Notes: generated from the letters alone by a model not told the origin. Counted from the stretch's first letter, positions 4,991 through 20,965 are shown. The stretch is 64,000 nucleotides of DNA from a virus (IMGVR_UViG_3300010356_000549:1-64000), one strand, 5' to 3'. Numbers and translations: made by a program.

Positions 4991-5074
4991 AGGGGTAACA
5001 TTAACCTAGGGATGCCAGTAGTGCAAGCTAATTAATAAAATTATTTTTATTAAACCTAAAATTTGTTGGGGGGA

Positions 5075-5251
5075 TCAGGGCTCCTTGTCCTTAGGATTTG
5101 CACGATCTTGCAAATTTTTGGGTGGCTTCCTGTCTTTCCACGGGAAGGCTATTTGGATACCATAGGAGGTGGGGCCACGGGGGCTGGGATCACTCCATGT
5201 CCATATCGATACACGTCGAAGGATCTTGCGGATAAATTTCACGGATTTCAT
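5075..5251 (-). CDS. 58-aa hypothetical protein missed by the ORF track (MKSVKFIRKILRRVSIWTWSDP...)
   Basis: manual translation; preceded by TTTCCA-N16-TAGGTT with a 5-nt gap; carries 18-bp motif copy 2. Confidence 0.45.
   Translation of the reverse strand: MKSVKFIRKILRRVSIWTWSDPSPRGPTSYGIQIAFPWKDRKPPKNLQDRANPKDKEP
5097..5114 (+). repeat. 18-bp quasi-palindrome, copy 2
   Basis: exact TTTGCACGATCTTGCAAA. Confidence 0.95.
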
Positions 5252-5305
5252 GGGGTAACCTACACCACGATTTGCCTTTGGAAAGGGGGTGTGTTATGGT
5301 CCCCG

Positions 5306-5965
5306 ATGAAGTTGTGGATACTGATATTGATAGCAGGGCTTGCCGGGGCAGGTGTAAAGGGAGCGGACCAATGGCAAATCACTTACAACGGCAACCTAAA
5401 GGTTGCGGCTGGCACGGATTATGTGATTATCGACCTGTTTGACTACGGCTCCAGGGGTGTGGCCACCGTTAAGGCGGCTGGGGCCAAGCCCATCGCCTAT
5501 TTCTCGGCGCATTACGAGGATTGGCGACCGGACAAAGGCCAATTCGGGCGCAAGCTCGGGAAGATTGGAGGGTGGAAAGGTGAGTATTACATCGACTGGA
5601 CAGACCCGAGGAACCAAACCGTCATGCTTAGTAGATTGGAGCGGGCTAGTCGGCTAGGGTATTGGGGAGTTGACATGGATAACGTGGATGGGCCGGGGAT
5701 GGGTGGTTATTTTGCGTGGCTCTACAAGGCTGCGAAGGCTAAAGGGCTGGCGGTGGGGCTGAAAAACAGCGTTGAGCTGCTGCCGACCTGGGGGGCTAAG
5801 GTGGATTTTTTCGTCTCCGAGGCCACGAACTCCGGGGAACTGACCTGTTATAAGCCCTACATTCTCCCCACTCGACCAGCCGTGCGCATGTGTTATAGTC
5901 GCAAGGTGCCGACACCCGCATACATCGCCGAGGTGTGGAGCAAAACAAAAGGAAGCAAATACTGA
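5306..5965 (+). CDS. secreted glycoside hydrolase family 114 (endo-alpha-1,4-galactosaminidase-like)
   Basis: signal peptide MKLWILILIAGLAGAGVKG; QWQI, VIIDLFD, PIAYFSA.YEDWRPD, GWKGEYYID, GVDMDNVDG, GLAVGLKN, VDFFVSE; promoter TTGCCT-N17-TATGGT 5 nt before the ATG. Confidence 0.8.
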   Translation: MKLWILILIAGLAGAGVKGADQWQITYNGNLKVAAGTDYVIIDLFDYGSRGVATVKAAGAKPIAYFSAHYEDWRPDKGQFGRKLGKIGGWKGEYYIDWTDPRNQTVMLSRLERASRLGYWGVDMDNVDGPGMGGYFAWLYKAAKAKGLAVGLKNSVELLPTWGAKVDFFVSEATNSGELTCYKPYILPTRPAVRMCYSRKVPTPAYIAEVWSKTKGSKY

Positions 5966-5966
5966 T

Positions 5967-6272
5967 ATGAATAGGAGAGGATCATTCAAAACAATATTGG
6001 GCGGCTTGATAGCTGCGGCAACGTGGATTGGGGCGGGATGCCGGGAGGTTTACAGCGCGGTCTCGCGGTGGGGGTGGCCGGGCTACCCCAAGAAGGGGGA
6101 GCTGAGGAAACACCTGAAAACATCAAAGAACCATCCAAACATTACGGATGCGGAGGTGGATGCCATGTCATTTGAGCAGATGATCAAGTGGCACGATGCA
6201 GACCACAAGCGGAGGGGGGACAAGGGGCGATTCAATCCCGCTGCGCATGTCCCTGGAACTGACTACCCATGA
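5967..6272 (+). CDS. small exported protein with a twin-arginine-like signal
   Basis: MNRRGSFKTILGGLIAAATWIGAG-C; His-rich C-terminus (LRKHL...H...WHDADH). Confidence 0.6.
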   Translation: MNRRGSFKTILGGLIAAATWIGAGCREVYSAVSRWGWPGYPKKGELRKHLKTSKNHPNITDAEVDAMSFEQMIKWHDADHKRRGDKGRFNPAAHVPGTDYP

Positions 6273-6931
6273 CGCGCCGGGGGCTGCTCCTATCCGCCTT
6301 TTCGTGGCCTGATTTTGGAGAGTTACAACTAAAGATGAAACCAAGTGAAGACATGCTCCGCATAGCGGAGTTCATCGTGACAAAGGAAGGACGATTCGAT
6401 GCCGATGGGCGGTTGGTCGTTTACAAGCTGCCAAGGGGGGATGGGGGTGGCTCCTATGAGGTGGCCGGGATCAATGACAAGTTTCATCCCGGCATGGCCA
6501 GGCACCTGCGAGGACTGATTGAGGGAGGTAACCATGAGGAGGCCATGACTCAGGCTACCTGCTACATCGCGGAGTATGTAGGGAGTGCGGCTTCCTACCA
6601 TGAGTCCTATGCCGTGGACGTGTTCCTGATGGATTGCTCGTTCAACCGAGGGCCGACCGGGGCGGTCAAAATCCTCCAACAGGCGTTGAAAACGGCTGGC
6701 CTTTACGGGGGCAAGATCGACGGGAAGGCCGGGCCGTTGGTGCAAGATGCTCTGCTGCGCATAAGCGGGGAGGACTTGATTTTCCGCCTGCTGCTATCGC
6801 GCCAGTGGTATGAACGCTGTATCGTGGGGCGGTCCGAGTCTAACCCGCTATGGAATGGGCTGGTCAATCGCTGGATCAACGTTGCCCAATTCGCTGTAAG
6901 GCTGGGTAACCCCTACAAAAACCTGGCTTAA
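6269..6931 (+). CDS. GH108-family muramidase with a C-terminal peptidoglycan-binding domain
   Basis: KEGRFD (EGG-like catalytic Glu), GGGSYEVAGIN, VFLMDCSFNRGPTGAVKILQQAL..DGKAGP, NGLVNR. Confidence 0.75.
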   Translation: MTRRGLLLSAFSWPDFGELQLKMKPSEDMLRIAEFIVTKEGRFDADGRLVVYKLPRGDGGGSYEVAGINDKFHPGMARHLRGLIEGGNHEEAMTQATCYIAEYVGSAASYHESYAVDVFLMDCSFNRGPTGAVKILQQALKTAGLYGGKIDGKAGPLVQDALLRISGEDLIFRLLLSRQWYERCIVGRSESNPLWNGLVNRWINVAQFAVRLGNPYKNLA

Positions 6932-8176: not shown

Positions 8177-8556
8177 GCAGGAGCATGAGCATTATCTGGA
8201 ACAGGCTAAAGGCGGCGATGAGCTACCCTCCTTATGGCATGAATTGCCCGCCGAGGAATGCCCTTCCACCACCGCCACCACCAAAACCAATCACAACTAG
8301 AAGTATGAGCATAGACACCAATAAAATAGAGGTAGAAGATACGCGAGCCAGCGAGGAGGAGAGCTGCTACAGTTGCGGCTCTCGGGACTGCGGGGCGAGG
8401 GCACCGGGGCAAGGCATGTCGTGGGACTGGCGGGAGCAGCCCAACTGGGGCAGGCTTAATAACCTGCTGAGACCTTTCGGGGCTGTCATCATTGAGGTAG
8501 ATACCGATGACGACCAACACACAATCAGGGTAGGAAAGCTGAATAATAACAGATGA
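8173..8556 (+). CDS. hypothetical protein with a proline run and CxxC
   Basis: 127-aa ORF, coupled overlaps at both ends. Confidence 0.55.
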   Translation: MSRSMSIIWNRLKAAMSYPPYGMNCPPRNALPPPPPPKPITTRSMSIDTNKIEVEDTRASEEESCYSCGSRDCGARAPGQGMSWDWREQPNWGRLNNLLRPFGAVIIEVDTDDDQHTIRVGKLNNNR

Positions 8557-8858
8557 GAATGACATTGAAGGGACTGACGGCAAAAGAGAGAAACACTCTG
8601 ATAAACAAGCAGCATGAGCTGGAGGGGGCGCTGGACTGGCTTTTAAGGCAAGCTGATGGTAGGACAACGGAGGGGAGTTTTACGGGAGAGGGAGGTGGGC
8701 CTATTCCCACCGTTACCGTGGACGGCCACCATCTCCGAATCCTCATCAATCATGTGGAGGGGGACATCAACCTTATCGCTGAGTGGCTGAGGGAGGATGC
8801 GAAGGGTAAGGCTTTCCGGGAGGGGTGGCTTAAATCGTGCTTCAAGACAGGCATATAA
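8553..8858 (+). CDS. hypothetical protein
   Basis: 101-aa ORF with ATGA overlap. Confidence 0.6.
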   Translation: MRMTLKGLTAKERNTLINKQHELEGALDWLLRQADGRTTEGSFTGEGGGPIPTVTVDGHHLRILINHVEGDINLIAEWLREDAKGKAFREGWLKSCFKTGI

Positions 8859-8876
8859 TTTGCAAGACCGTGCAAA
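8859..8876 (-). repeat. 18-bp quasi-palindrome, copy 3 (1 mismatch)
   Basis: TTTGCAAGACCGTGCAAA on +, directly after the stop codon. Confidence 0.9.
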
Positions 8877-8890
8877 ATCACACAAAAGGT

Positions 8891-9094
8891 ATGGATAGAG
8901 ATTACCGCACGGGAACACATCTATTTGCGCTCCACTCCGGGGATACCGAAACGGGGCGCAGGAAGATAATGACGGGGCAGGAAGCGATGGACGATAACCT
9001 AGCCAAACAGCGGGCCTATGTGGCGGCTGTGAGGCAAGGCAAGCCCAACGGGGAGCGGCTGGAGGTCTGGAAAGTGATCAAGAAATTTATATGA
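8891..9094 (+). CDS. hypothetical protein
   Basis: 3' part of track ORF 8837..9094; start uncertain (8891 or 8969). Confidence 0.45.
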   Translation: MDRDYRTGTHLFALHSGDTETGRRKIMTGQEAMDDNLAKQRAYVAAVRQGKPNGERLEVWKVIKKFI

Positions 9095-9303
9095 TCCTGT
9101 CAAAATATTGGGTGGTGGTTTACTGCAAACAAACTCCACGCCACCGAGTTGGGCCGGGCCACCTTGAAACGCAGGATTGGAAGCCGGAAATCACGACCGT
9201 GGTTTCCCTGAGGCACAAGCGCAGTGAAACGTTTGTGCGGCAGATGAATGAGTTCATAGACTTAGATGTTCGGGAGGTAAAGCCCTTGGAGCAGTGGAGG
9301 TAG
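9091..9303 (+). CDS. hypothetical protein
   Basis: 70-aa ORF with ATGA overlap. Confidence 0.55.
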   Translation: MILSKYWVVVYCKQTPRHRVGPGHLETQDWKPEITTVVSLRHKRSETFVRQMNEFIDLDVREVKPLEQWR

Positions 9304-9366
9304 GTTGACGGAGGGGGCCATTAATTAACTGCTTGAACGGGCGGCTTTGTCTGCTAGAATGTGGAC

Positions 9367-9645
9367 ATGCCACACTTCCTAAGCGTCCATGAAGACGAGC
9401 TTTTAGTCGTGACCTTAGACACCGGATTCCTAGAATCCGGGGAGACCGCTTATTTTGTTATCGGGAGGGCCAGCGATAACGGGAAGATCATCGAGGGCGC
9501 ATTCTCCGGGTCGACCGCTACCATCGCGCATGGGCTGGTCGCCGGGGAATACAAGACGCAGATTCAGGCTAGGGTAGAGGCTACCGTCACCAACGTGATT
9601 GAGGGGCCACGGCTTAAGGTGGAGGCCATCCTAAAAACCAGATGA
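9367..9645 (+). CDS. hypothetical protein (leaderless)
   Basis: TTGAAC(9333-9338)-N16-TAGAAT(9355-9360), ATG 6 nt later. Confidence 0.65.
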   Translation: MPHFLSVHEDELLVVTLDTGFLESGETAYFVIGRASDNGKIIEGAFSGSTATIAHGLVAGEYKTQIQARVEATVTNVIEGPRLKVEAILKTR

Positions 9646-10211
9646 CCGTCAATCAAACAGTTACCCTTGCGACCCTAACGGTCAACGAGCAAACGGTGAT
9701 GTTGGCCGTCGAAGGCAGGGATCGTGTTTTATTGGGTGGACCACATGGGCCAGGCAGCGCAACGGGCTTCCAATCGCCTGCTGCCTTGAGCGCAATCCTT
9801 GACGCTTATGGGGATGGGTTCTGGAACAGCGGGTCGGGAGACAGGCTGTATGACGACGGTGCACTAGCAAATGGGCTCTACGGCTCGCCGTTATTGTATT
9901 ACGTTGAAGGTTATCCGGCGACGGGGTATTACGAGGCCACGTTTTATGTTTCGGGCAACCCGACTTCGCTTGACTCCAACGGGGACGGGTGGTGGGATTC
10001 TGACAATGATAGCACGTCGGAGTTTTATGACAATGGATACTTATTCACGGGCACCTACTCAGGCTTGTTCTATGTCAACGGGCTACTGTTTGGAAGCGGG
10101 TGGTATAGCGGTACAGGCACTTGGTACCATGAGAGCGTGGCAACCACACTGGACTCAAACGGGGACGGGAACTGGGATGGATCGGACTGGATTGGAGGGG
10201 TCAGACAATAA
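9642..10211 (+). CDS. Tyr/Gly/Trp-rich repeat protein with two DxNGDG motifs
   Basis: LDSNGDGWWD and LDSNGDGNWD; repeated Y-x-x-G turns. Confidence 0.6.
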   Translation: MTVNQTVTLATLTVNEQTVMLAVEGRDRVLLGGPHGPGSATGFQSPAALSAILDAYGDGFWNSGSGDRLYDDGALANGLYGSPLLYYVEGYPATGYYEATFYVSGNPTSLDSNGDGWWDSDNDSTSEFYDNGYLFTGTYSGLFYVNGLLFGSGWYSGTGTWYHESVATTLDSNGDGNWDGSDWIGGVRQ

Positions 10212-10321
10212 TGCCATGACCAAGCTGATTATATGGGTCATTTGGCTGGCGATTATGAAAGGGAGATTGGTTGTCTCTCTTTCCAGATTGACAACAAGGG
10301 TTAAGCGATTAGTATGGACTA

Positions 10322-11053
10322 ATGACATCGCGATTATTGAGTATCCTTGTGACCCTGCCCGTGATTTGCACGATCTTGCAAATCCGGTCGACTTCGGCGA
10401 CCGAGAGCACCTTCACGGCTGCCAAGAATATCCTGCGGACAGCGATTCCTGTTAAGCAGGAAGGCGGCTTCCTGCGGAGCGGGTGGATCAAAGAAGGGCT
10501 ATCGTCCCTCATGGGTGTGGAGGGGACCGTCGTTCAAGTGGAGCTGCCCGCGACAGAGCCAGAGCCAGCGCCAGTAACGACCTCAGGCGACGAGGTTCAG
10601 GAGTTGCCCGAAGGCACCAGCAATTTTTACCGGGACTCCCTGTTTCCCCTACCCGTAGATGATGAGGCGATACGGCAGCCCGAGAAAGTGCCCACCGGGG
10701 CACCCGTTCAGCTCATTGTTATTGACCTATCTGAGGAAAAGCTGGAGGCTTTCAGTATAGAAGGGGAGAGCCTGATGACCGCCAAAATCAAGGCATCCCG
10801 CTTTGGTATCGGGAGCGAGCAGGGGAGCAAAAAGACGCCCATAGGCGAGTGGACCCTGAATAAGGAGCCCAAGCACTCCTACGGTCCCACGTATCGGCTT
10901 TCCGGGGAGCAGGGCAAGGAAAGGGGCATCCTGATTCACCCCGGCAACCTAGGGCACGGCTCTCGCGGCTGTATTCATGTGAGTTGGGATAAGATCAAGG
11001 CACTTTACTCAATCACAGCCTCAAAAGGCACCGAGCTTAGGATTCAAGAATGA
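10322..11053 (+). CDS. exported L,D-transpeptidase (YkuD-domain) protein
   Basis: N-terminal signal; IVIDLSEEKLEAF, KTPIGEW, GILIHPG..GSRGCIHV (catalytic His/Cys); promoter TTGACA-N16-TAGTAT 6 nt upstream. Confidence 0.75.
   Translation: MTSRLLSILVTLPVICTILQIRSTSATESTFTAAKNILRTAIPVKQEGGFLRSGWIKEGLSSLMGVEGTVVQVELPATEPEPAPVTTSGDEVQELPEGTSNFYRDSLFPLPVDDEAIRQPEKVPTGAPVQLIVIDLSEEKLEAFSIEGESLMTAKIKASRFGIGSEQGSKKTPIGEWTLNKEPKHSYGPTYRLSGEQGKERGILIHPGNLGHGSRGCIHVSWDKIKALYSITASKGTELRIQE
10365..10382 (+). repeat. 18-bp quasi-palindrome, copy 4 (inside the signal-peptide codons)
   Basis: exact copy. Confidence 0.95.
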
Positions 11054-11406
11054 ATATATGGAGGAACATAGTCGCCTTTTCTCTCCTTTCCCTAACCGGG
11101 TGTCGGGAGAGTGACGAGAGGGTGCTTTCGAAGCGTCCCAGCTTCACTCCCCTAGCTATTGGGGCGGAGGAGCCGGGGGATGCGGAGGGGCTTTCTCCCG
11201 GCATCCTACGCATCGACATAAATTGGTCCCCCGAACCTCCGGTTGATCTGGAGGAAGAACCCACTTGGCTGTTTGACAATCCTTATGTGGAGTCCCCCGA
11301 GCCAATCAAGCCTAAGCCTAAGGCCAAGGCCAAGGCCAAGGCACCCGCCAAGGCCACACCTAAAAAATCCACTATAAAAAAGGCGGCTCCCGCTTGCAAA
11401 ACATGA
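11050..11406 (+). CDS. lipoprotein with a Lys/Ala/Pro-rich tail
   Basis: lipobox LTG-C; KPKPKAKAKAKAPAK repeat. Confidence 0.65.
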   Translation: MNIWRNIVAFSLLSLTGCRESDERVLSKRPSFTPLAIGAEEPGDAEGLSPGILRIDINWSPEPPVDLEEEPTWLFDNPYVESPEPIKPKPKAKAKAKAPAKATPKKSTIKKAAPACKT

Positions 11407-11461
11407 CGATGACTTTATCCTTGCGGTCGCAAGGTAAATACAACCAAGCAATAGAACAAAA

Positions 11462-12208
11462 ATGAAGAATAAAATTATAACGTTGGCGGCCATATTGGCC
11501 GGAGTAGGGTTAAGCATGATGATGGTAGGGTGTGATGGACCTCATCCGGTCCTTCCGGTTCCAGGGACCGTGACGGCTGCGGAGGCAGAGACTACCTACG
11601 ATGACACCTATGTTTACGAACACAAGCTCACTGAGCCAATCGTGGTTGAAGACGGGGAGACATACGATGGATTGATTGACGGGAGGATGACCCGACTCAG
11701 CCGGGCCGATGCCGACCCTATTGCCATCAAAAACATTCGAGGGGAGCTACTACACAACCAAGCTGGGATTGTCATGGAGTTAAAGCCGGGAGCCATAGTC
11801 AAGAACGTCATTATTGCTGAGAATTGCCAGATTGATGCAGTCCTAGCGGGGCGGATGAATATTTACCTTGAAAACGTGGAGTGGGAAGATTGTGCCGTGA
11901 ATGTCATTACCAAAGATTCACCGGGTTACCTATCATTGACCAATTGCCATGGACAAGCCAGTATTACCTATGCACCTAACATTAGTGAGGCCGGGCCGGG
12001 AAACGGATCTCAGGAAATAGCGGAAGCCAAGCAGAGCAAGCCGAGCGATGACCTTAGCATCAGCAATGCACCGGATTACATGGGAAAGCGTTCTAAGTCA
12101 GCCTCATCCGGGGTATCCGCACTCAAGCCCCCCAAATGGGTGCCGGGCAAGCCGTTCCAAAACTGGAAGGCTCAAATTGCTTACCATAAGGCCAAGCAAG
12201 CCTCCTAG
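11462..12208 (+). CDS. lipoprotein with a pectate-lyase family 3-like beta-helix
   Basis: lipobox VG-C; PIVVEDGETYDG, MELKPGAIVKNVII, LENVEWED. Confidence 0.6.
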   Translation: MKNKIITLAAILAGVGLSMMMVGCDGPHPVLPVPGTVTAAEAETTYDDTYVYEHKLTEPIVVEDGETYDGLIDGRMTRLSRADADPIAIKNIRGELLHNQAGIVMELKPGAIVKNVIIAENCQIDAVLAGRMNIYLENVEWEDCAVNVITKDSPGYLSLTNCHGQASITYAPNISEAGPGNGSQEIAEAKQSKPSDDLSISNAPDYMGKRSKSASSGVSALKPPKWVPGKPFQNWKAQIAYHKAKQAS

Positions 12209-12230
12209 AATCAATAGAATCCCATCCCCC

Positions 12231-12258
12231 AAACCCGTCAGAAATGGCGGGTTTTTTT
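12231..12258 (+). terminator. rho-independent terminator
   Basis: AAACCCGTCA-GAAA-TGGCGGGTTT plus T-run. Confidence 0.85.
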
Positions 12259-12333
12259 GTGTCCCTGAATATTAGTTAAAATAAATTACTTTTTTTCTCT
12301 TTACTAATAAGGGTTAAGGGTTTATAATGTGTT

Positions 12334-12615
12334 ATGGGAATAAATATAAATGTGGAAGGGATGGCGGCATTCACGGTACGTGAATTACTGCTCATGGGTC
12401 AACTGGCTAAGGCTGGCAGGGGGATGACGTGCAGTGAGCTGCGGCCTATGCTAGAAACCAGCTTATCGGGAATCACGTCAATCTGCCTCAGCTTGGAACG
12501 GCGGGGGCTGGTGATGCGTTCCAAGAGCGATCACCCGAAGTCGGCGGATAGGAGATGTGTCCACGTCCACTTAACGGAGGCCGGGGCGAAGCTCATCAAC
12601 GATAAACTGGTATGA
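12334..12615 (+). CDS. MarR-like winged-HTH regulator
   Basis: MTCSELRPMLETSLSGITSICLSLERRGLVMR...DRRCVHVHLTEAG; promoter TTTACT-N17-TATAAT 5 nt upstream. Confidence 0.8.
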   Translation: MGININVEGMAAFTVRELLLMGQLAKAGRGMTCSELRPMLETSLSGITSICLSLERRGLVMRSKSDHPKSADRRCVHVHLTEAGAKLINDKLV

Positions 12616-12866
12616 CAACAGTGGAGTTAGAGAAGCTGGTAGAGGCAAGCGTCTGCTGCCTTATTTCACAGAAATTCCATGACCTTACCTTTTCCGACAG
12701 CCTTCAATGCCGCTTGGCTCATAATGAGATAACCGTCGTTGAACTTAAAGAGGTGTTCATGGCCGGGGTAAATGCGGTGCGGGTGGCCACAGGGGCGGCA
12801 CTGCTGCCTTTGGAGGCGGCGGAGTTGGCTCTGGAGGAGCTGCGGAGACAAGAGGATATCCTCTGA
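12612..12866 (+). CDS. hypothetical protein
   Basis: 84-aa ORF with ATGA overlap. Confidence 0.6.
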   Translation: MTTVELEKLVEASVCCLISQKFHDLTFSDSLQCRLAHNEITVVELKEVFMAGVNAVRVATGAALLPLEAAELALEELRRQEDIL

Positions 12867-12870
12867 TACC

Positions 12871-13182
12871 ATGAGGAAAATTGAGGAGGAAGAGGAGTGG
12901 CTTAAGCTCATTGCGAAGCCCAAAAAGAAGAGGGTCAAGAAGGCCAAGGCCATGAATCAGGTTGAGGCGGCCAGGATCGTTGCGCAGGCGACCAACGCCA
13001 GTGCTAATACGGTCAAGGCGTGGTGGCGTAAAAACAAGGTGGCTGCCTCTCTAACTCTGGCCGAAGCGGTATTGAGGTCCGTTTGGCTGGGGCAGGCGGT
13101 TAGGGTGGGGCGACTCACCATCCGGGTGTGGGTAACTAAGGAGGACTCCATAGCGGATATTGAGGAGAAATTGATGGATTGA
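12871..13182 (+). CDS. hypothetical basic protein, weak HU/IHF-like resemblance
   Basis: MNQVEAARIVAQATNAS...AEAVLRSVWLGQAVRVG. Confidence 0.5.
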   Translation: MRKIEEEEEWLKLIAKPKKKRVKKAKAMNQVEAARIVAQATNASANTVKAWWRKNKVAASLTLAEAVLRSVWLGQAVRVGRLTIRVWVTKEDSIADIEEKLMD

Positions 13183-13231
13183 CACGGGGACGAGGCAGGG
13201 TAACCTAAGGAGTCGTGTTATTGCCTAGTGG

Positions 13232-13274
13232 AACCCAGCGGATTGTGGCGCAAGCTCGTCCGCTGGGTTTTTTT
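13232..13274 (+). terminator. rho-independent terminator
   Basis: AACCCAGCGGA/TCCGCTGGGTT stem plus T-run. Confidence 0.8.
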
Positions 13275-13308
13275 ATTGACGCTGCGGAACTTTGAACTAT
13301 CGTGGGGC

Positions 13309-13854
13309 ATGACTACCAAGAAAAGCCCTGCCAGATCGCGCACTAAGCCTAAGGATAACACCAAGGTTAAGGAGGACACGATCAGGCGGAAGAATCGAAT
13401 GTTGAAAGCCTTGGCGGATACCAAGGGGAACATCTCAGCGGCCTGTGACCGGGTGGGGGTGGACCGCATTACCCACTACCGCTACATGGAGAACGACCCT
13501 GCCTATGCCAGCAAGGTTAAGGAGGTCGAGGAGAGGTTGGTGGAGACGATTGAATCCCTGTTCATCAAATCGACGGTCAAGGCCGATGACAGGCGTTCGA
13601 TGAAGTGGATTCTGGAGCGGTTGAACCGGGCGCGTTGGGGTAAAGTTGAGACTCACGAATTGTCCGGGCCGGGCGGGGAGCCTATACGCACCGAGGGCAC
13701 TATCACGGTGGCGACCCTGCGCCAGTATATCCCTGACCAATCTTTATGCGATGCCGTTATCGACATGGCTCGCTCAAAACCTCGCGTGATTCAGCCGTCC
13801 TCTGGTGAGGCCGTGGCCAAGAAACGCGATGAGGATGAAATCGGAATGAACTAG
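13309..13854 (+). CDS. terS: terminase small subunit (HTH)
   Basis: LKALADTKGNISAACDRVGVDRITHYRY HTH, WILER...WG, ELSGPGGEPI; promoter TTGACG-N16-TATCGT 5 nt before the ATG. Confidence 0.7.
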   Translation: MTTKKSPARSRTKPKDNTKVKEDTIRRKNRMLKALADTKGNISAACDRVGVDRITHYRYMENDPAYASKVKEVEERLVETIESLFIKSTVKADDRRSMKWILERLNRARWGKVETHELSGPGGEPIRTEGTITVATLRQYIPDQSLCDAVIDMARSKPRVIQPSSGEAVAKKRDEDEIGMN

Positions 13855-13866
13855 ACATATAAAAGC

Positions 13867-14565
13867 ATGAGCATGAAAAGAAAAGACACAAAAGGCAATC
13901 GCACGGCGACATTAGACGTGCGAGTAATGGCACTGGCAGACCTACAGGAGCACCCAAGGAATGCCGAGATACGCAAGCACCCAGCTCCGGGAACGGCTAA
14001 GTGGGAGACACTGAAGAAGTCGCTGAAACATGATTACTTTGATCCCATCGTGCTCAACCTAAGGAACGGCCAACTGGTATCGGGCCACCTGCGCAGGCGC
14101 GTGATGATGGAGGATGACATGTACACCCATGCGAGTGTGGTGTGTGTGGATTATGATGAACCCACCCACATGGCGAGAATGTTGGCGGCCAACAAAAGCG
14201 TGGGGGACAACGACCTTGAGGGTCTCAAACAATGGTTCTCGGAGTTCTCGACCATTGATGACTTTAATTTTGACATAACGGGCTTTGACATGGGGGAGAT
14301 TGACGGGATGGGTAACTTTGACCCTGCTTTCGACTTTGACGACGAGGATGACACGACCGGGGAGCCGCCACCAGAGGCGGGGGAGGCTGATTACCGGGGG
14401 ATTCGCTACCTTCAACTCATCTACTCACCGGAGGAGTATGAGGAGATCCAGACCTTGATTGCTGCCTACAAAAAGGCAAAAAACAAGGAGCTGACAGCTA
14501 CCTTCGGGGACGACTGTAATGACTTCGCAAACATCGTGCTCCACCTGTTTCGTCATGCAAGTTAA
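13867..14565 (+). CDS. ParB/Srx-like N-terminal domain protein
   Basis: LADLQEHPRNA...LKKSL..YFDPIVLN..GQLVSGHLRRR...MLAANK. Confidence 0.8.
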   Translation: MSMKRKDTKGNRTATLDVRVMALADLQEHPRNAEIRKHPAPGTAKWETLKKSLKHDYFDPIVLNLRNGQLVSGHLRRRVMMEDDMYTHASVVCVDYDEPTHMARMLAANKSVGDNDLEGLKQWFSEFSTIDDFNFDITGFDMGEIDGMGNFDPAFDFDDEDDTTGEPPPEAGEADYRGIRYLQLIYSPEEYEEIQTLIAAYKKAKNKELTATFGDDCNDFANIVLHLFRHAS

Positions 14566-15535
14566 GCGTATCCGAGAGCTTCCCTTCCGGGAGGTTTACC
14601 TGCCTCCGTGCCTCACTGAGGCGGAGACAAACGCCAAGCTCGGCACCCTACTAAATGATTCCGACTTTGATGAGGACAAAATTTTCCGGGAGAACGTCAA
14701 TGCCTACTGTGCCGAGACAAAGGCTCCCCTTTTTTTCTTGCGGAGGGGGATTATCTCAAAGGAGCTGGTCGTCACCGCATTCAACTCGTTCCTTAAAGCG
14801 GCTGGCAAATCTTACAACCGAGGCATGGCGTCTGGTTCTGACCCTGGGGAGGAAGCCCTGTCTGAATTGCTGAGGCTAACCGGGGCAGTGGCTTACCGTA
14901 AAGCCAAAGGCAACGCTACCCGCTATGAGGTGCTGTGCTCTGACGGGAGCTGGTCAAACACGTCCTATGCGGCTCCCATAAACTCAGGGGTGGCGGGATT
15001 TTACCCCAAGACACCCCGAGTGCCTTACTGCCGATTGACGGCATTCACTCAGAACCATGTGGAGGAGTTCCGGGCCGGGCTGCCCTTGGTGCATTTGGTG
15101 GATAATGTTTACAAGGCGCTGGTTCCTGACAGCTATGCGCTTCAACGGGAGGAAGCTAACCGAACATCACCGGACTTTGTGATCAAAGACACGTCTTTCA
15201 CCACCATCACGGTCAACAAAAACTGGCAGACAGCATGCCATACCGATAAAGGCGACTTCGAGCAGGGCTTTGGGAATTTGGTGGCTCTGCGCAAGGGGAA
15301 ATACTCCGGGGGATTCACTATTCTGCCAAGATACCGGGCCGGGGTGGACCTACAAAACGGTGACGTGCTGCTGATGGACGTTCATAAGGTGCATGGGAAC
15401 AGCAAGATCGTGAAGATGGCACCGGGGGCGGTCAGGCTTTCCTTAGTGCATTATTACCGGGCGGACATGATTAATTGTGGCACGCAGAAGGATGAGCTGG
15501 AGGAAGCCAGACGCAAACGTCAAAAGCTGCTATGA
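14555..15535 (+). CDS. TET/JBP-family 2OG-Fe(II) base dioxygenase #1
   Basis: PYCRLTAF, FTTITVNKNWQTACHTDKGD (HxD), GVDLQNGDVLLMDVHKVHGNS, RLSLVHYYR. Confidence 0.85.
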   Translation: MQVKRIRELPFREVYLPPCLTEAETNAKLGTLLNDSDFDEDKIFRENVNAYCAETKAPLFFLRRGIISKELVVTAFNSFLKAAGKSYNRGMASGSDPGEEALSELLRLTGAVAYRKAKGNATRYEVLCSDGSWSNTSYAAPINSGVAGFYPKTPRVPYCRLTAFTQNHVEEFRAGLPLVHLVDNVYKALVPDSYALQREEANRTSPDFVIKDTSFTTITVNKNWQTACHTDKGDFEQGFGNLVALRKGKYSGGFTILPRYRAGVDLQNGDVLLMDVHKVHGNSKIVKMAPGAVRLSLVHYYRADMINCGTQKDELEEARRKRQKLL

Positions 15536-15933
15536 TCATCCGCAAATTCAGCCGCTCTGACGAGGCATGGATTAAGCCGATATGGATTCAGGGAGAAAAA
15601 ATGGGTGCCTTCGGTGCCTTTTTCTTCATGTGGAGCGGCTTAGTGCAGGGCAGGCCCAAAGGAGTCGACGCCGTCGTATGTCAGGGCAAGGGGTTTATGC
15701 GGTTCGTGAATAAAAACGGGGTATGTGAGGTCAAGGAAATCATAGTTGCCGAGTCTGCCCGTCGTCAAGGCGTGGGGCGAGCATTACTTGAGGAGCTGCC
15801 AAGACCTATCGTGCTGGAGACCAATGAATGGAACGAGAGCAGCCTGCTATTCTACAAGAGTTTGGGCTTTCAACAAAAAGGATCAAGAAGGACGCCCAAA
15901 GGTAAGGTCTTGATCCAGCTAGTGAGGAAATAA
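15532..15933 (+). CDS. GNAT-family acetyltransferase
   Basis: EIIVAESARRQGVGRALLE (motif A), NESSLLFYKSLGF (motif B). Confidence 0.85.
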   Translation: MIIRKFSRSDEAWIKPIWIQGEKMGAFGAFFFMWSGLVQGRPKGVDAVVCQGKGFMRFVNKNGVCEVKEIIVAESARRQGVGRALLEELPRPIVLETNEWNESSLLFYKSLGFQQKGSRRTPKGKVLIQLVRK

Positions 15934-15934
15934 C

Positions 15935-16537
15935 ATGTGTGGAGTCGTTGCGTGGATAAAGGGAGGCCGGAGAAGCGTGCCGGGGATTTGTAAATTGCTG
16001 GAGGAGTCCGCTATCCGAGGAGTTCATTCATTTGGTTTTTATGGGCCGGGTGGCACCTCCAAGCACCATAGGCTGGCGGAGGCCGTGAAGCAAATGCCCA
16101 TGGCACCGTTCATCTTCCATAACCGTTATTCCACCTCAGGGGACTGGGATGACCATAATAACAATCAACCCATCATCTCCGGGAGCGTGGGAATGGCCTT
16201 TAACGGGACTTTGGATATGAGAACCAAGGAGGAGATGGAGGCGGCCCACGGGGTCAAGATGCGGACCTACAATGATGGGGAGCTTGCGTTGCTGGCTTAC
16301 CTCAAGGGGGGCGACCGGGGGCTGATGGACTTTATCGAAGAGACGGGAGGCTCATTCGCAGGCGTGTTCTTGGAGCCGGGGAGACTGTTCGCATACCGGA
16401 ATACCAAGCGACCCTTATGGGTGGTGGATGAGGGGAGTCTTGCTGTCATAGCGTCCACTCAGGATATCCTCTCGCGGGCGGGCTTTAACGGGGCTGAGGA
16501 ATTGGAGGCAGGGGAAATACACTCATGGACACTGTAA
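15935..16537 (+). CDS. stand-alone class II (Ntn) glutamine amidotransferase domain
   Basis: MCGVV N-terminal Cys, RGVHSFG, HNRYSTSG, NQPI, FNGTL. Confidence 0.85.
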   Translation: MCGVVAWIKGGRRSVPGICKLLEESAIRGVHSFGFYGPGGTSKHHRLAEAVKQMPMAPFIFHNRYSTSGDWDDHNNNQPIISGSVGMAFNGTLDMRTKEEMEAAHGVKMRTYNDGELALLAYLKGGDRGLMDFIEETGGSFAGVFLEPGRLFAYRNTKRPLWVVDEGSLAVIASTQDILSRAGFNGAEELEAGEIHSWTL

Positions 16538-17424
16538 ACAGATATTTGGAGTATCACCTCCGATCCGCCAAAGAACGGGATATTGATCCGGCCAACGATG
16601 CGCTGAGATATTTGTCAAACCGTTTTGAGCTAAACAGGGAACAAAGGTATTGGTTGGCCTTCCTTTATGCCACCTGCTACTCCTCCACGACTGCCTACTA
16701 CATGTACAATGAGTTCCCCGACTTTGAGACGGTGGACCCAAAGCGCATGACCAGATGGTGGGAAGCTAACCGGGACAAGCTGCTGTTTCAGACCGACAGG
16801 AGATGGACACGCAGCCGGAATCAATGGGTGGATTGCTTCCTCTCTTACCGCTCCTTAGTGGGGAGCGTAGGGAGCCAACACGCACTATTCAAGAGTGCCC
16901 TACGACGCGCAGGAGGGTGTAATCGAGGTGCCTACGACATAGCCTTCTCCCTCAGTAGCACCATCTTCACGTTTGGGAGGTTTACCCTATTCCTGTATCT
17001 GGATGCCATAAATGCCATCACGGAAACATCGTTGAATCCACATAGCCTAGACTTAGTCAACGCTGCCTCTAGCCGGGGAGGATTGGCCTTCGCAGTAGGG
17101 ATGAGTGTAGAGAGTAAAGATTACCCCAAACTCAATCGCAAGTTTAAGGAGTTGGAGGTGGCCGTGGGGGGGCTACCTATAGATGACCAGTTCAAGACGG
17201 TGTGGGCTATGGAAACTTGCCTGTGCGCCTTCCGCAAACACTGCCAGGGGAATAAACGATGGGTTGGCTACTACATCGAGAGGCAGCGCAAGGAGCTGGA
17301 GGCGATGCAGGAAAAGGTTGCGACGGGGGTGAATTGGGACGTTTTGTGGGACTTTAGGGCGGAAACGTATAAGGATAAGCATCTTAAAAATGAAAAACGT
17401 AAAATTAATAGCAGTTGGAGGTGA
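16525..17424 (+). CDS. amino-acid:DNA transferase-like (aGPT-Pplase2/ADDT clade) protein
   Basis: RYWLAFLY..CY, FGRFTLFLYLD, METCLCAFRK, RWVGYYIER; context between TET and kinase genes. Confidence 0.65.
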   Translation: MDTVNRYLEYHLRSAKERDIDPANDALRYLSNRFELNREQRYWLAFLYATCYSSTTAYYMYNEFPDFETVDPKRMTRWWEANRDKLLFQTDRRWTRSRNQWVDCFLSYRSLVGSVGSQHALFKSALRRAGGCNRGAYDIAFSLSSTIFTFGRFTLFLYLDAINAITETSLNPHSLDLVNAASSRGGLAFAVGMSVESKDYPKLNRKFKELEVAVGGLPIDDQFKTVWAMETCLCAFRKHCQGNKRWVGYYIERQRKELEAMQEKVATGVNWDVLWDFRAETYKDKHLKNEKRKINSSWR

Positions 17425-17932
17425 GCCAGCCAGCGGGAAGACATCGGTATTTCGACATGTCCAGAGCAAGCTGGCACCGATGGGGCGGGAGTTCCGTTAC
17501 AAGCTGGTCAGGGGCAGGATGAATGCGGCGGGCGACGTGCTTATGCTGGGGGTGTTTGACGGCTCCTTACATGAGGGGACAGACAAGCTGAGTATGGCGG
17601 TTCAGCCGGACCTTTTGGCGTTCCTGGATGTGCTGGAGGCCAAGGGTAAAAAAGTGGTGATAGTCTTTGAAGGGGACAGGTTATTCAACGGGGCGCTGTT
17701 TGATAAGGTGGAAGAGGACTGTTCGCTGTTTGTCTTGACAACCAACAGGCAAGCGGAGAACATACGAGCGAGGGGGACGAACCAGACAGACGCCTTCCTC
17801 CTATCCAAAAAAACCAAGGTTGCGAACATCTGTAAACGGTTTAAGCATACCCCAATAGAGAACAATCACCCGGAGTCTATGGAGGAGGCGGCGGAGGTGA
17901 TCGTGAAGGAAATCAAAAGGCTCCTCTCATAA
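17390..17932 (+). CDS. P-loop nucleotide/DNA-base kinase of base-modification clusters
   Basis: AVGGEPASGKTS (Walker A), GTDKLSMAVQP, IVFEGDRLF. Confidence 0.75.
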   Translation: MKNVKLIAVGGEPASGKTSVFRHVQSKLAPMGREFRYKLVRGRMNAAGDVLMLGVFDGSLHEGTDKLSMAVQPDLLAFLDVLEAKGKKVVIVFEGDRLFNGALFDKVEEDCSLFVLTTNRQAENIRARGTNQTDAFLLSKKTKVANICKRFKHTPIENNHPESMEEAAEVIVKEIKRLLS

Positions 17933-17936
17933 GGCC

Positions 17937-18872
17937 ATGGAGACAATCAAAAGAAACAAGGTATTAACGGACAGCGACACTGCGGCAATGGAGGGCTCGA
18001 CCCTGCGCAAAAAACCATCTATGGTCATTAAGGGGGGGCACCCCCTTGGGGTTTTTTGTGCCGATACCGGGAGCTGCCTGCTCAAGTATTTGCCACAAGT
18101 GGTCCCCCGAAAAATATGGCTGCCCGCCTATAATGCGCTCGAAGACGCAGCGACCATGTCGGATAACCGGGGGATGGCGTCCGGGGAGCTGGATGACGAG
18201 GAGGCCATGAAGCTGGCCATCCGGCAAGGCGGCATTGGTTTCCATAGGGTGAACAAATACCGCATCCAAGTGGTGTATGAGGGCAACAAGGTTAGCAGCG
18301 TGAACAGGTCAAAGCCATCCATGGGAGGCATAGTGGGATTCTTCGGGAGCGGCCCAAGACAGCCCTTCTGTAGGGTCACCGCCTATGCTCAGAAGGATTT
18401 TGTGAGGTTTAAACGATCATGGCCATTGGTTCGGGCGGTGAATAGCGTTTATCAAAAGGAGATGCCCCACAATTATGAGATACAGGAGGCAGCTTTGGCG
18501 GCTTCTAAAGGGCAGGATTTTATCATTACAGGGACGGCCTTCTCTACCCTGACAGTCAACCGCAATTTCCAAACGGCATGTCACTATGATCGGGGGGATT
18601 TTAAGGAGGGCTTCGGAAACCTGTTTGTCATACGCAAGGGGCAGTATGAGGGAGGCATTACCTGCTTCCCTCAGTATGACATGGGCGTGGACATGCAGAC
18701 CGGGGATGTGCTATTGATGGACGTTCACCGCCTTCACGGCAACACGCCTATCAAACCCAAGGAGCCGGGGGCGGTGCGGCTTGCCATTGTAATGTATCTA
18801 AGGGAAGACATTCTCAAGTGCTCCTCTATGGAGGAAGAGTTGAAAAAAGCCAGAATTGTTACCGCACTATGA
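17937..18872 (+). CDS. TET/JBP-family 2OG-Fe(II) base dioxygenase #2
   Basis: PFCRVTAY, FSTLTVNRNFQTACHYDRGD (HxD), GDVLLMDVHRLHGNT, RLAIVMYLR; clear paralog of #1. Confidence 0.85.
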   Translation: METIKRNKVLTDSDTAAMEGSTLRKKPSMVIKGGHPLGVFCADTGSCLLKYLPQVVPRKIWLPAYNALEDAATMSDNRGMASGELDDEEAMKLAIRQGGIGFHRVNKYRIQVVYEGNKVSSVNRSKPSMGGIVGFFGSGPRQPFCRVTAYAQKDFVRFKRSWPLVRAVNSVYQKEMPHNYEIQEAALAASKGQDFIITGTAFSTLTVNRNFQTACHYDRGDFKEGFGNLFVIRKGQYEGGITCFPQYDMGVDMQTGDVLLMDVHRLHGNTPIKPKEPGAVRLAIVMYLREDILKCSSMEEELKKARIVTAL

Positions 18873-20371
18873 ACACGCTGTCGGAACAGGAGTACCAGAA
18901 GGCAATCGAAGTGCTCATAGCTAAGGCCAGAACCGACTTCCTGACTTACTTTCACCTGTTTAATCCACAGGGAGCCGGGGCCATTATTTTGGGTGACCTT
19001 CACCGCTACCTGATTGAGCTTACCCAACAAGTGTACGAGGGAGGACCGGAGCGGGCGAATAATGCTGTGTCCGTTCCTCCGCAACACGGCAAGAGCACGA
19101 TTCTATCCGTGGAGGCACCGAGCTGGCTGCTGGGAGTTTCCCCCAACATATCCATCGCCATCACGGGTTTCTCCTACAGCCTTGTGACCAAGTTTTCAAA
19201 GGCAATCAGGAGCCGTTTGGAGCATCCACTTTATCAGATCATCTTTCCAGGGGTTTACCCCGCCAAAGGGTCAAACAAGGAGGATGAATGGGAGACAGCC
19301 GTAGGGGGCAGCGTGATTGCCAAATCTTCCGGGGCAAAGCTGACCGGGCGACGGGTCGACTGGTTGATCATGGATGACGTTCACCCCGGTCGAGCCGAAG
19401 CGGAGAGTCCATCCATGAGGCGGAAGGTCATTGAGTGGTATTTCGCGGACTGTCTTACACGCTTACACCCCAAGGCGAAGACGTTTCTGGTGGGCACCCG
19501 CTGGCACCCGCACGACTTGATTGGGCACCTGACTTCTCCCGAGTATCAAGCGGAGCTGGACCAAGAGCAAAGCTCCCGGAAGTTTACCAAAGTCAATATT
19601 GCGGCGATTGCGGAGGAAGGCGTGCCGGACCCTCTGGACAGGCAACCCGGAGAAGCCCTATTCCCTGAGGAGCGTCCTTTGAGCTACCTGAAAAGCATCA
19701 AGGCGGCCATACCCTCCTACGAGTGGGACAGCCAGTACCAAGGCAAGCCTCGCTCTGCTGCGGGCGGGCAAATCGACCTTACCAATCTCCACTACCTGAC
19801 TCCCGATAACATACCGTGGAATGACATAGACGAAATTGTCAGGGGGTGGGACTTGGCCATGAGCGAGAAACAGACTGCGGACTATACCGCAGGGGCTTTG
19901 GTGGGGATCAACTGGGATACGCGGGCGCTGTATATCCTGCACATCTACCGGAGGAGGATGGCGTGGGCCAAGATGCGGAAGGCCATCCTGGACACTGCGG
20001 CGATTGACCTGAGGGGGTATCCCGCAAAGAAAGACGTGACATCCAAAAAGGTGCTGCGTGTGGGGCTGGAGGGGGTGGCCGGGTTCAAAGGGGTGGTTGA
20101 GGACGTGCGGCAGGAGCTACTGGGGACCGTCAAGGTGGAGTTGCGCAACCCGCCATCTCGATCACAAGGCGGAGGCAGCAAGCTACTTCGGGCACAGCCT
20201 TGGCTGAATAAGCTGGAGAAGGGGCTTGTTTATGTGGTCCGGGGCGACTGGACTAAGGATTTCATTGATGAGCTTGACCACTTCCCTGATGGGCCTAAAG
20301 ATGACCAGATTGATGCCGTATCCATTGGGAATGAGATGTTTGACAGGCGGGCGCAATTATTGATTGCCTAA
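18869..20371 (+). CDS. terL: terminase large subunit
   Basis: SVPPQHGKS (Walker A), LIMDD (Walker B), GTRWH..DLIG, GWDLA..ADYT, FPDGPKDDQIDA. Confidence 0.95.
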   Translation: MNTLSEQEYQKAIEVLIAKARTDFLTYFHLFNPQGAGAIILGDLHRYLIELTQQVYEGGPERANNAVSVPPQHGKSTILSVEAPSWLLGVSPNISIAITGFSYSLVTKFSKAIRSRLEHPLYQIIFPGVYPAKGSNKEDEWETAVGGSVIAKSSGAKLTGRRVDWLIMDDVHPGRAEAESPSMRRKVIEWYFADCLTRLHPKAKTFLVGTRWHPHDLIGHLTSPEYQAELDQEQSSRKFTKVNIAAIAEEGVPDPLDRQPGEALFPEERPLSYLKSIKAAIPSYEWDSQYQGKPRSAAGGQIDLTNLHYLTPDNIPWNDIDEIVRGWDLAMSEKQTADYTAGALVGINWDTRALYILHIYRRRMAWAKMRKAILDTAAIDLRGYPAKKDVTSKKVLRVGLEGVAGFKGVVEDVRQELLGTVKVELRNPPSRSQGGGSKLLRAQPWLNKLEKGLVYVVRGDWTKDFIDELDHFPDGPKDDQIDAVSIGNEMFDRRAQLLIA

Positions 20372-20404: not shown

Positions 20405-20965
20405 ATGGGCAAAAATTACGAAATACTACAACCACTTGGAACAGGCGTCTTAATCAAGAGAAGCAAGCCGAGAACCGTCACCGAGGGAGGCATTCATTTG
20501 CCTGAAACGGAGGTGGAGCGGCCACCAGAAGGGCTGGTCTTGAGGACTGGGACCGGGCCCAAGAAGGCGGAGGCGGATAAATGGGGCGGCTTTACGGTGG
20601 AGCAGGGCGACTTTGTGCTGATAAACAGGTATGGAGCCAGGGATGTCACCGACGACCTCGCCATAGTGAAATCTGAGGACATTCTGGCGCGTATCGAGGG
20701 AGGGGAACTGTTCCCGCTGGACACCACGTTACTGATTCGCGTCCTCCCGAGAGAGACGCAGGCGGGCTCCATCGTATTGCCCGAGTTCTCGCGCATGACT
20801 CAGGAGTTTGGTGTGGTGGTCGACCGGGGCGATAGGTGTAAAATCATCCATGAGGGCGATTATGTTTTCGTGGCATCGACTCAGGGGATGCACTACCGGG
20901 CGCATGGACAGGATTACATCCTGCTTCGGGAGGAGGCTGTCAAGGCATACGCTGACAACCAGTGA
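20405..20965 (+). CDS. groES: tandem double-domain GroES/Cpn10 co-chaperonin
   Basis: two repeats: QPLGTGVLIK..TEGGIHLPE..GDFVL..SEDILA and FPLDTTLLIR..AGSIVLPE..GDYVF..REEAVKA. Confidence 0.85.
   Translation: MGKNYEILQPLGTGVLIKRSKPRTVTEGGIHLPETEVERPPEGLVLRTGTGPKKAEADKWGGFTVEQGDFVLINRYGARDVTDDLAIVKSEDILARIEGGELFPLDTTLLIRVLPRETQAGSIVLPEFSRMTQEFGVVVDRGDRCKIIHEGDYVFVASTQGMHYRAHGQDYILLREEAVKAYADNQ

Follow-up and report, generated by a model that had tools for sequence, protein, structure and literature searches.

Results

Gene content of the locus

We analyzed the 64,000-nucleotide (nt) stretch IMGVR_UViG_3300010356_000549:1-64000 (the window), which makes up the initial 64 kb of a 75,106-b IMG/VR virus record with an estimated completeness of 86%, and describe here a predicted thymidine-hypermodification cassette located between its small (terS) and large (terL) terminase genes. 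Open reading frame (ORF) calls place seven plus-strand genes at 13867-18872, in which adjacent genes overlap by 4-47 nt or leave gaps of 1-4 nt, as an earlier note on this DNA had described. In order, they encode a ParB-like protein of 232 amino acids (aa; 13867-14565), a TET/JBP-type (5mYOX) Fe(II)/2-oxoglutarate (2OG) dioxygenase that we term TET1 (14519-15535; PF12851, 3.9e-22), a 133-aa GNAT N-acetyltransferase (15532-15933; PF13508, 2.4e-9; PF00583, 3e-7), a stand-alone class II (N-terminal nucleophile, Ntn) glutamine amidotransferase (GATase) of 200 aa (15935-16537; GATase_6, PF13522, 6.4e-8), a 299-aa member of the amino acid:DNA transferase family (ADDT; 16525-17424; PF18724, 7e-23), a 180-aa P-loop kinase (17390-17932) and a second TET/JBP dioxygenase of 311 aa, TET2 (17937-18872; PF12851, 6.5e-22). 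Upstream, the cassette is flanked by the gene for a small terminase-like, HTH_8-containing protein of 208 aa (13228-13854, plus strand; PF02954, 4.7e-5; phrog_4044 and phrog_4102, terS), which is 34-49% identical to the ORF immediately upstream of TerL in two related loci, L086 and L091. Downstream lies the large terminase gene (18818-20371, plus strand; phrog_38, 1.2e-89; PF17289 and PF03237); its translation probably begins with the ATG at 18869, which shares the sequence ATGA with the stop codon of TET2, because the gene call on an identical contig (L090) begins at the equivalent position. Going by position only, the cassette would fit late-gene expression, after replication and before packaging.

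When IMG/VR was scanned with the ADDT, at least 129 contigs were found to encode a relative; 80 of these (44-52% identity) were fetched, and iterated local hidden Markov models (HMMs) were run on all of their ORFs, giving a set of 81 cassettes with the window included. The occurrence of homologous cassettes in at least 129 contigs indicates that the seven genes are an operon rather than a chance run of ORFs. The earlier note had reported that the window contains no C5-methyltransferase, dUMP hydroxymethylase or dCMP deaminase, and had proposed that the rest of the genome be searched for the first of these. Across the whole 75,106-b record, PF00145 (C5 DNA_methylase), PF00303 (Thymidylat_synt), PF02511 (Thy1), PF00383 (dCMP_cyt_deam_1) and PF01555 (N6_N4_Mtase) all gave zero matches, so that the absence extends beyond the window.

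ParB-like protein and TET dioxygenases

The product of the first gene, left unnamed in the earlier note, matches phrog_620 ('ParB-like partition protein') at 3.2e-18 and has zero Pfam matches, ParB_N included. In its AlphaFold2 model, with a mean predicted local distance difference test (pLDDT) score of 71, residues 16-125 form a confident N-domain of the ParB/Srx nucleotide-binding type, the acidic linker at 134-178 is disordered and residues 188-230 make up a C-terminal helical hairpin; the model has no central helix-turn-helix or DNA-binding domain. Its best PDB matches by Foldseek were ParB-N 5k5d (1.8e-5), Noc and ParB-CDP (CDP/CTP-bound ParB), all spanning only ~95-100 residues, and throughout the family alignment the ParB 'GxxR' box keeps G73 and R76 unchanged. 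In 71 of the 80 related loci, the cassette is preceded by a ParB-like ORF, and the remaining nine start at a contig end. The highest identities of the window's ParB (47-48%) are to ParBs encoded ahead of TET1-type genes; those of the loci L085, L086 and L088 follow (41-42%), the first two of which precede TET2-type genes, and toward the commonest cassette class the identity of the ParBs is <22%. We regard this protein as a predicted activator of TET that defines the subclass to which the cassette belongs.

Both dioxygenases score far above the PF12851 cut-off of 34.9 bits (TET1, 78.7 bits; TET2, 77.9 bits). The claim that both keep the HxD motif, the distal His and the 2OG-binding Arg was borne out, with H241xD243, H292 and R306 in TET1 and H216xD218, H267 and R281 in TET2, and 76-77 of 77 aligned relatives have the same residues in these columns. 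The true start of TET1 is probably at 14555, giving a protein of 326 aa, since the database cluster representative P0044 has that length. From its family membership, TET1 is a predicted thymine-to-5-hydroxymethyluracil (5hmU) oxidase acting on DNA; 601 proteins match it at E < 1e-30, and comparison with PDB sequences by phmmer and hmmsearch returned nothing. In a comparison that covered class A and class B relatives, TET1 and TET2 each carry ~17-19 residues past a conserved Cys, as in class A; class B TETs are without this C-terminal tail.

The two TETs are 41% identical to each other. Nearest to TET1 are the TET of L093 and TETa of L091 (both 55%) and the proteins P0045-P0047 (52-56%), and TET2 has its relatives in P0007-P0012 (48-56%). 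A lineage-specific duplication was first suggested by the sister placement of TET1 and TET2 (Shimodaira-Hasegawa-like approximate likelihood ratio test, SH-aLRT, 96) in a tree built from the ADDT-linked loci alone and by an insert common to their variable regions. A local duplication was ruled out once the relatives of TET2 were added: constraining the two as sisters costs 80.7 log-likelihood units (approximately unbiased test, p = 2.5e-5), and TET2 falls into a clade with P0007-P0012 and TETb of L091 (SH-aLRT 100). By these phylogenetic comparisons, TET1 and TET2 represent two old subclades and are neither recent nor local duplicates. TET1-type and TET2-type enzymes are both normally associated with ParB, and at least two phage lineages, those of the window and L091, have both types alongside one ParB although their TerL proteins are only 42% identical. 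In L085 and L086, the TET2-type enzyme is the sole TET and is encoded immediately after the ParB-like gene. P0013, which is nearer to TET1 than to TET2, is found in L088 together with a radical S-adenosylmethionine (SAM) enzyme, a TAGT-like protein and a GNAT fusion.

A second TET was present in the window only among the 81 ADDT-linked loci. Over 11,860 aligned positions, the ENA contig L090 departs from the window at just one (11,859 identical), and was therefore rejected as an independent second occurrence of the two-TET arrangement, being the same phage. The one differing position is a G4 run (L090 position 8714) in place of the G5 run at 18767 of the window, which frameshifts TET2 before the 2OG-binding Arg; the difference may be an assembly error or real population variation. 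A terminator-like G+C-rich hairpin followed by a T run is found at 18028-18052 (plus strand), ~90 nt inside the TET2 frame.

Kinase, transferase, amidotransferase and acetyltransferase

The kinase has the Walker A sequence GEPASGKT, and G16-K17 and E94-G95-x-R97 are invariant in 58 of 58 family members. Its model (pLDDT 90) finds P-loop nucleoside monophosphate and nucleoside kinases in the PDB by Foldseek, and the search of PDB sequences by phmmer and hmmsearch was again without a match. Against a viral structure library, the '5-hmdU DNA kinases' of SP10 and PhiW-14 appear at Foldseek ranks 13 and 16. The profile of the 58 members aligns over 85 columns with gp54 of phage M6 (hhalign probability 77%, E = 2e-5), a protein that has been shown experimentally to be a 5-hydroxymethyl-deoxyuridine (5hmdU) DNA kinase (5-HMUDK), and the same function is predicted for the kinase of the window.

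The ADDT scores 82 bits against a PF18724 cut-off of 26.2. E230, T231, L233 and C234 are invariant in all 81 cassettes, and E230 and C234 correspond in the alignment to the Glu and Cys that form the essential motif in M6 gp51 and PaMx11 gp46; mutation of either the Glu or the Cys kills activity in M6 gp51 and ViI gp247 (PMC8989533). These results uphold the relationship to ADDT that the earlier note had assumed for 16525-17424. The HMM comparisons that it proposed for transferase and kinase were clear for the ADDT family, with a short-motif alignment to M6 gp51, and only modest for the kinase. The ADDT is predicted to displace the phosphate of 5-phosphomethyl-deoxyuridine (dU) via a C6-thiol adduct and to add a nucleophile.

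The GATase begins Met-Cys-Gly, and the Cys2 is kept in 79 of 79 sequences, along with invariant R64, N90-G91 and D114. These residues align with those of the PurF glutaminase domain (1ao0), which indicates a full PurF-type glutamine site. The 200 aa correspond to the glutaminase domain alone, with no fused acceptor (synthase) domain. A GATase is present in all 80 related loci, and the ADDT gene follows it immediately or with just the GNAT gene in between. Since the GATase is always present, has a complete glutamine site and contains no acceptor domain, its binding to the ADDT was tested by complex prediction, using our own 31-row alignments in three runs. The predicted complex scored 0.91-0.92 over the three runs (best control, 0.01), the runs share at least 93% of contacts and the partner has a pLDDT of at least 93. 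Among solved complexes, 58 of 80 reached the pass mark, as did 2 of 110 mismatched pairs, counts that hold only roughly here because our own alignments were used.

The model predicts a heterodimer of GATase and ADDT, joined through the active-site face of the glutaminase. The interface on the GATase comprises residues 157-160 and, on that face, residue 1, which adjoins the catalytic Cys, residues 26-31, Y65 and T67 of the RYSTSG loop, and residues 91-96, which adjoin the Asn-Gly oxyanion hole. On the ADDT it comprises the segments 33-40, 61-74 and 268-276, whose sequences hardly vary across the ADDTs that are linked to a GATase. The ADDT of L091, a locus without a GATase, retains the catalytic motif but has lost conservation in the third interface segment and shows it only in part in the second.

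The GNAT, found in 47 of the 81 cassettes, is 32% identical over 65 aa to PaMx11 gp48, the N-acetyltransferase of 5-aminomethyl-dU (5-NmdU; pairwise E = 3e-7), and is predicted to acetylate an amine placed on the base. Family searches found no pyridoxal phosphate (PLP)-dependent, radical-SAM or flavin adenine dinucleotide (FAD)-dependent tailoring enzyme among the operon's seven proteins.

Gene order and modularity of related loci

The 80 loci fall into three architectures, and the core across all gene orders consists of ParB, TET, P-loop kinase, GATase and ADDT. The first order, ParB-TET-GATase-(GNAT)-ADDT-kinase, usually followed by terS, was found in 53 loci, five of which have two ParB genes and six of which begin at TET. 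The second, ParB-small P-loop-GATase-ADDT-TET, was found in 21 loci, and the remainder are a few truncated forms. In the 21 loci of the second order, a P-loop protein of ~150 aa (GYHGCGKT) that was missed by the kinase HMM lies between ParB and GATase (e.g., L055:3167-3622, with equivalents in L075, L066, L049 and L045), and the TETs are very divergent, being 19-22% identical to TET1 and without the C-terminal tail.

Further loci combine the ParB-TET front end with other genes. The TARA contig L091 (76.9 kb; 8267-15589) encodes ParB, TETa, TETb, a 328-aa protein of no known family, a divergent PF18724 ADDT, kinase, terS and TerL, and its locus has no GATase or GNAT. Its ParB, kinase and TerL are 47, 43 and 42% identical to those of the window, respectively; TETa is 55% identical to TET1 and 44.5% to TET2, and TETb is 51% identical to TET2 and 42% to TET1. 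Genes for an epimerase and a TAGT-like protein, as well as NTP_transferase genes, are located nearby. In L085 (1114-6057) and L086 (6407-11000), the back end consists of a ~260-aa protein and a ~620-aa protein with a faint NTP_transferase signal, followed by terS-TerL; proteins with a GGACT domain also occur in back ends of this type. L086 shares 61% identity with the window in TerL and 54% in portal. In L088 (7297-12444), the radical SAM/SPASM enzyme, the TAGT-like protein and a GNAT fusion of 339 aa are encoded behind ParB-TET. The back ends of L085, L086 and L088 probably correspond to different, uncharacterized thymine modifications. The front end is thus paired with GATase/GNAT/ADDT/kinase, with NTP_transferase-like proteins or with radical SAM and TAGT, and is nearly always located just upstream of the terminase genes or, as in the window, between them. 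This modularity of front and back ends fits the combinatorial picture drawn in PMC13229309 and PMC8989533.

Searches against cultured phages found no close relative. The operon DNA gave zero matches in 50,697 cultured-phage records, and tblastn with the kinase and the ADDT returned distant matches only (Cr30 and Melnitz; Vibrio and Aeromonas phages, 21-26%). An NCBIfam search returned nothing specific, and promoter and terminator scans of the window did no better than on shuffled sequences.

Other genes in the window

Directly after TerL, a 186-aa gene (20405-20965, plus strand) has a precomputed Cpn10 (GroES-like) Pfam match on the identical contig L090. Between 5063 and 12208, also on the plus strand, is a series of envelope- or polysaccharide-active genes, including a GH114 glycoside hydrolase (5063-5965), a PG_binding_1-domain protein (6269-6931), a YkuD L,D-transpeptidase (10322-11053) and a pectate-lyase-like protein (11462-12208). 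A family A DNA polymerase of 1106 aa (58698-62018, plus strand; PF00476 and PF01612) shows a weak, below-cut-off match to the UDG superfamily at N-terminal residues 153-257 (PF03167, E = 9e-4); UDG-PolA fusions have been reported from phages with thymine-modified genomes (PMC13697223).

Discussion

The seven genes at 13867-18872 make up a variant composition of a published and widespread class of cassettes, distinguished by two TET subtypes, one ParB and a position that splits terS from terL. O'Toole et al. (PNAS, 2026; PMC13229309) mined IMG/VR with PF12851 and described phage thymine dioxygenases that are ParB-independent (clade C2) or ParB-dependent (clade C1). The 5mYOXs of clade C1 convert thymine to 5hmU under stimulation by ParB, both in E. 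coli and in vitro, and the ParB partner keeps nucleotide-binding and C-terminal domains with no obvious DNA-binding domain (PMC13229309). The same study found the ParB-dependent enzymes to be "consistently linked" to GATases, to kinases of the P-loop type and to amino acid:DNA transferases (AADTs), and listed GNATs and terminases among the co-occurring domains. Lee et al. (2021; PMC8989533) had already placed TET_JBP beside thymine-hypermodification genes (Fig. 2, sequences 22-25) and had pointed out that such clusters contain 'glutaminotransferase' genes without a known function. Because the neighborhood was described in PMC13229309 (Fig. 3B/Fig. 9 text) and foreshadowed in PMC8989533, the cassette is not a new system, and the suggestion that it was the strongest candidate for one does not stand. 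The earlier interpretation is therefore partly supported, being right in mechanism and wrong in novelty.

Comparison with the published clusters, made on the basis of their descriptions, places the locus nearest to those of clade C1 (e.g., 5mYOX176/ParB176). As in those clusters, a TET follows a ParB that has a nucleotide-binding and a C-terminal domain and no DNA-binding domain, no C5-methyltransferase is adjacent, a GATase, P-loop kinase, AADT and GNAT are nearby, terminase genes adjoin and the origin is a metavirome. In contrast to them, the locus combines one ParB with two TETs, each from a different subclade, has the order GNAT-GATase instead of GATase-GNAT, and sits between terS and terL. 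A second point of reference is the pathway of M6, ViI, PhiW-14 and SP10 (Lee et al., 2018, 2021; PMC8989533), with which the locus has in common a P-loop kinase and a Glu/Cys-motif transferase acting on 5hmdU in polymerized DNA. In those phages, 5hmdU is supplied by a dUMP hydroxymethylase through the nucleotide pool, whereas in the window thymine is predicted to be oxidized in situ by TET. Moreover, the window's ADDT belongs to PF18724 and their transferase to the clade 2 aGPT-Pplase/AADT group, and the tailoring enzymes of the M6 type (PLP, radical SAM and FAD) are replaced in the cassette by a stand-alone glutaminase. The locus works like the 5-HMUDK/AADT pathway downstream and is not a member of the pool-fed type, in that the TETs replace the step of the ThyA homolog.

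These comparisons lead us to propose the following pathway. TET1, aided by the ParB-like protein, would hydroxylate thymine in phage DNA to 5-hydroxymethyl-dU, as do homologous enzymes with demonstrated activity. The P-loop kinase would then phosphorylate the hydroxymethyl group, on the pattern of the M6/ViI pathway. Judging from the conserved motif, Cys234 of the ADDT would attack C6 with Glu230 serving as the acid, so that phosphate is expelled and an exocyclic methylene is presented. The strict co-occurrence of GATase and ADDT and their predicted complex suggest that the docked Ntn glutaminase would deliver ammonia from glutamine as the nucleophile, yielding 5-aminomethyl-dU, and the GNAT, by analogy with PaMx11 gp48, would acetylate the amine to 5-acetylaminomethyl-dU (5-AcNmdU). 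TET2 may widen the set of thymine contexts (or DNA forms) that are oxidized, either sharing or bypassing the single ParB. We estimate the probability of this explanation as a whole, that is, a post-replicative thymidine-hypermodification cassette of the ParB-dependent clade C1 kind with the product and the role of TET2 included, at roughly 0.7. Membership in the class together with the first three steps (oxidation by TET and ParB, phosphorylation and formation of the ADDT adduct) is very probable. The earlier note had likewise proposed that 5hmU is made in place by TET and fed into kinase-transferase chemistry, and this agrees with all of the family assignments and with PMC13229309.

What the second TET contributes is less certain. 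Sequence preferences vary among the enzymes of O'Toole et al. (PMC13229309), 5mYOX97 favoring YTY and 5mYOX176/ParB176 favoring NTR. The simplest reading is that two TET subtypes widen the set of modified thymines, a role that we advance tentatively and would not call the probable one; action on different DNA forms or to a different oxidation depth are alternatives. It is also conceivable, but unlikely, that TET2 is a redundant or decaying extra copy and that the pathway is fed by ParB-TET1 alone. This idea draws on the frameshift caused by the 1-nt deletion in L090, on the rarity of a second TET (1 of 81 ADDT-linked loci) and on the longer branch of TET2 in the first tree (2.19 vs. 1.23 for TET1). 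On the other hand, TET2 keeps all catalytic residues as well as the C-terminal tail, its subclade provides the sole TET beside ParB in L085 and L086, the pairing of TET1-type and TET2-type enzymes is retained in the distant L091, and the L090 indel lies in a homopolymer and may be an assembly error.

The identity of the nucleophile bears on the product, which the earlier note held to be unpredictable. We propose 5-aminomethyl-dU and then 5-acetylaminomethyl-dU because GATase, ADDT and GNAT point there; a search of the literature found no determination of the final base of this cluster type and no function assigned to such GATases. The conversion of 5-NmdU to 5-AcNmdU is established chemistry (PMC8989533). 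In PaMx11, 5-acetylaminomethyl-dU is made by glycine transfer, FAD-dependent cleavage and acetylation, carried out by gp46 (Gly-AADT), gp47 (FAD lyase) and gp48 (GNAT) together with the kinase gp49. The locus resembles that pathway in having kinase, transferase and GNAT in one operon and in its predicted end product, 5-AcNmdU via 5-NmdU. However, it has no FAD oxidoreductase (glycinylthymine lyase) and shows no sign of a glycine intermediate; its 5hmU would come from TET rather than from a ThyA homolog, and its amine is predicted to derive from glutamine ammonia. In this respect, the GATase is reminiscent of the class II amidotransferases PurF, GlmS and AsnB, which likewise have an N-terminal Cys and a glutamine site of Arg, Asn-Gly and Asp, and in which the active-site face of the glutaminase abuts the acceptor enzyme, as is predicted here. 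It differs from them in being a separate 200-aa polypeptide whose predicted acceptor is a DNA-base transferase. The placement of the glutaminase active-site face on the ADDT would correspond to an ammonia-channeling geometry, and for this reason we infer ammonia, and not an amino acid, as the nucleophile. With the complex known from a model, we consider the route to these two bases possible, at odds somewhat below even. The fuller proposal would be a two-subunit, glutamine-dependent 'DNA amidotransferase' of GATase and PF18724 ADDT that places an unsubstituted amino group on 5-phosphomethyl-dU in duplex DNA to yield 5-aminomethyl-dU, with N-acetylation where a GNAT is present, plus two TET subtypes sharing one ParB for complementary thymine contexts; it is a speculative one, with chances nearer to one in three.

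An alternative that retains the same front end is that the group moved by the ADDT is an entire amino acid or an amine (glycine, serine, glutamate/glutamine or a polyamine), giving an N-acetyl-aminoacyl-thymidine or a similar product, with the GATase acting on the adduct or making a co-substrate and the GNAT acetylating the free alpha-amine. All characterized AADTs (M6 gp51, PaMx11 gp46, ViI gp247 and PhiW-14 gp109) use amino acids or putrescine, the Pfam family itself is named 'amino acid:DNA transferase', and Lee et al. class the genes with a glutaminotransferase domain as being of unknown function. Such a transfer accords poorly with a GATase that keeps the complete PurF site for free glutamine (Cys1, Arg, Asn-Gly and Asp) and has no acceptor domain, that stands beside the ADDT (or the GNAT) in all 80 loci and is predicted to dock onto it by its active-site face with a score of 0.91 against 0.01, and with an operon that contains no PLP, radical-SAM or FAD tailoring enzyme. 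We judge it improbable, with something over one chance in five. Finally, action of the TETs on 5-methylcytosine (5mC), made by a host Dcm-like enzyme or by a phage methyltransferase encoded in the missing 14%, so that the cassette would hypermodify cytosine, is very improbable, for, although phage clade A/B 5mYOXs oxidize 5mC, as do 5mYOX97 and 5mYOX176 in vitro, and the record is 86% complete, its 75 kb contain no C5-methyltransferase, clade C1/C2 phage enzymes without a neighboring C5-methyltransferase have been shown to be thymine dioxygenases, and kinase/AADT chemistry is known for 5hmU only.

Several points weigh against the proposed ammonia-dependent thymidine pathway. In E. coli, the 5hmU level reached with many ParB-dependent 5mYOX/ParB pairs was <5% (PMC13229309), and for that reason activity of the TETs cannot be assumed; TET2, frameshifted in the otherwise identical L090, may be dispensable (unless the difference is an assembly error), and a methyltransferase could sit in the missing part of the record, given its completeness of 86%. 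The link of the kinase to 5-HMUDK is weak, and its fold is indistinguishable from those of other small P-loop kinases. The likeness of the ADDT to clade 2 aGPT-Pplases is confined to the short motif, no PF18724-clade ADDT with a characterized function was found in the literature searched, and its profile matched no solved structure when compared with PDB sequences by phmmer and hmmsearch. Similarly, the likeness of the GNAT to gp48 lies in the generic acetyl-CoA motif. The complex prediction expresses the confidence of a model rather than binding, and part of its score could reflect likeness to solved interfaces between Ntn amidotransferases and synthases, which are common among solved structures.

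Clusters of this type are common in viromes, at least 129 IMG/VR contigs encoding a related ADDT. If the proposal is true, hundreds of uncultured phages would possess a glycine- and FAD-independent, one-step route to 5-aminomethyl-dU, the precursor of the PaMx11 base, and amination by GATase and ADDT would provide the 'GATase of unknown function', to which attention was drawn in 2021, with a chemistry. The recurrence of TET1-type and TET2-type enzymes with one ParB, in turn, offers a natural system for the study of ParB specificity and of the partition of sequence contexts among phage thymine dioxygenases.

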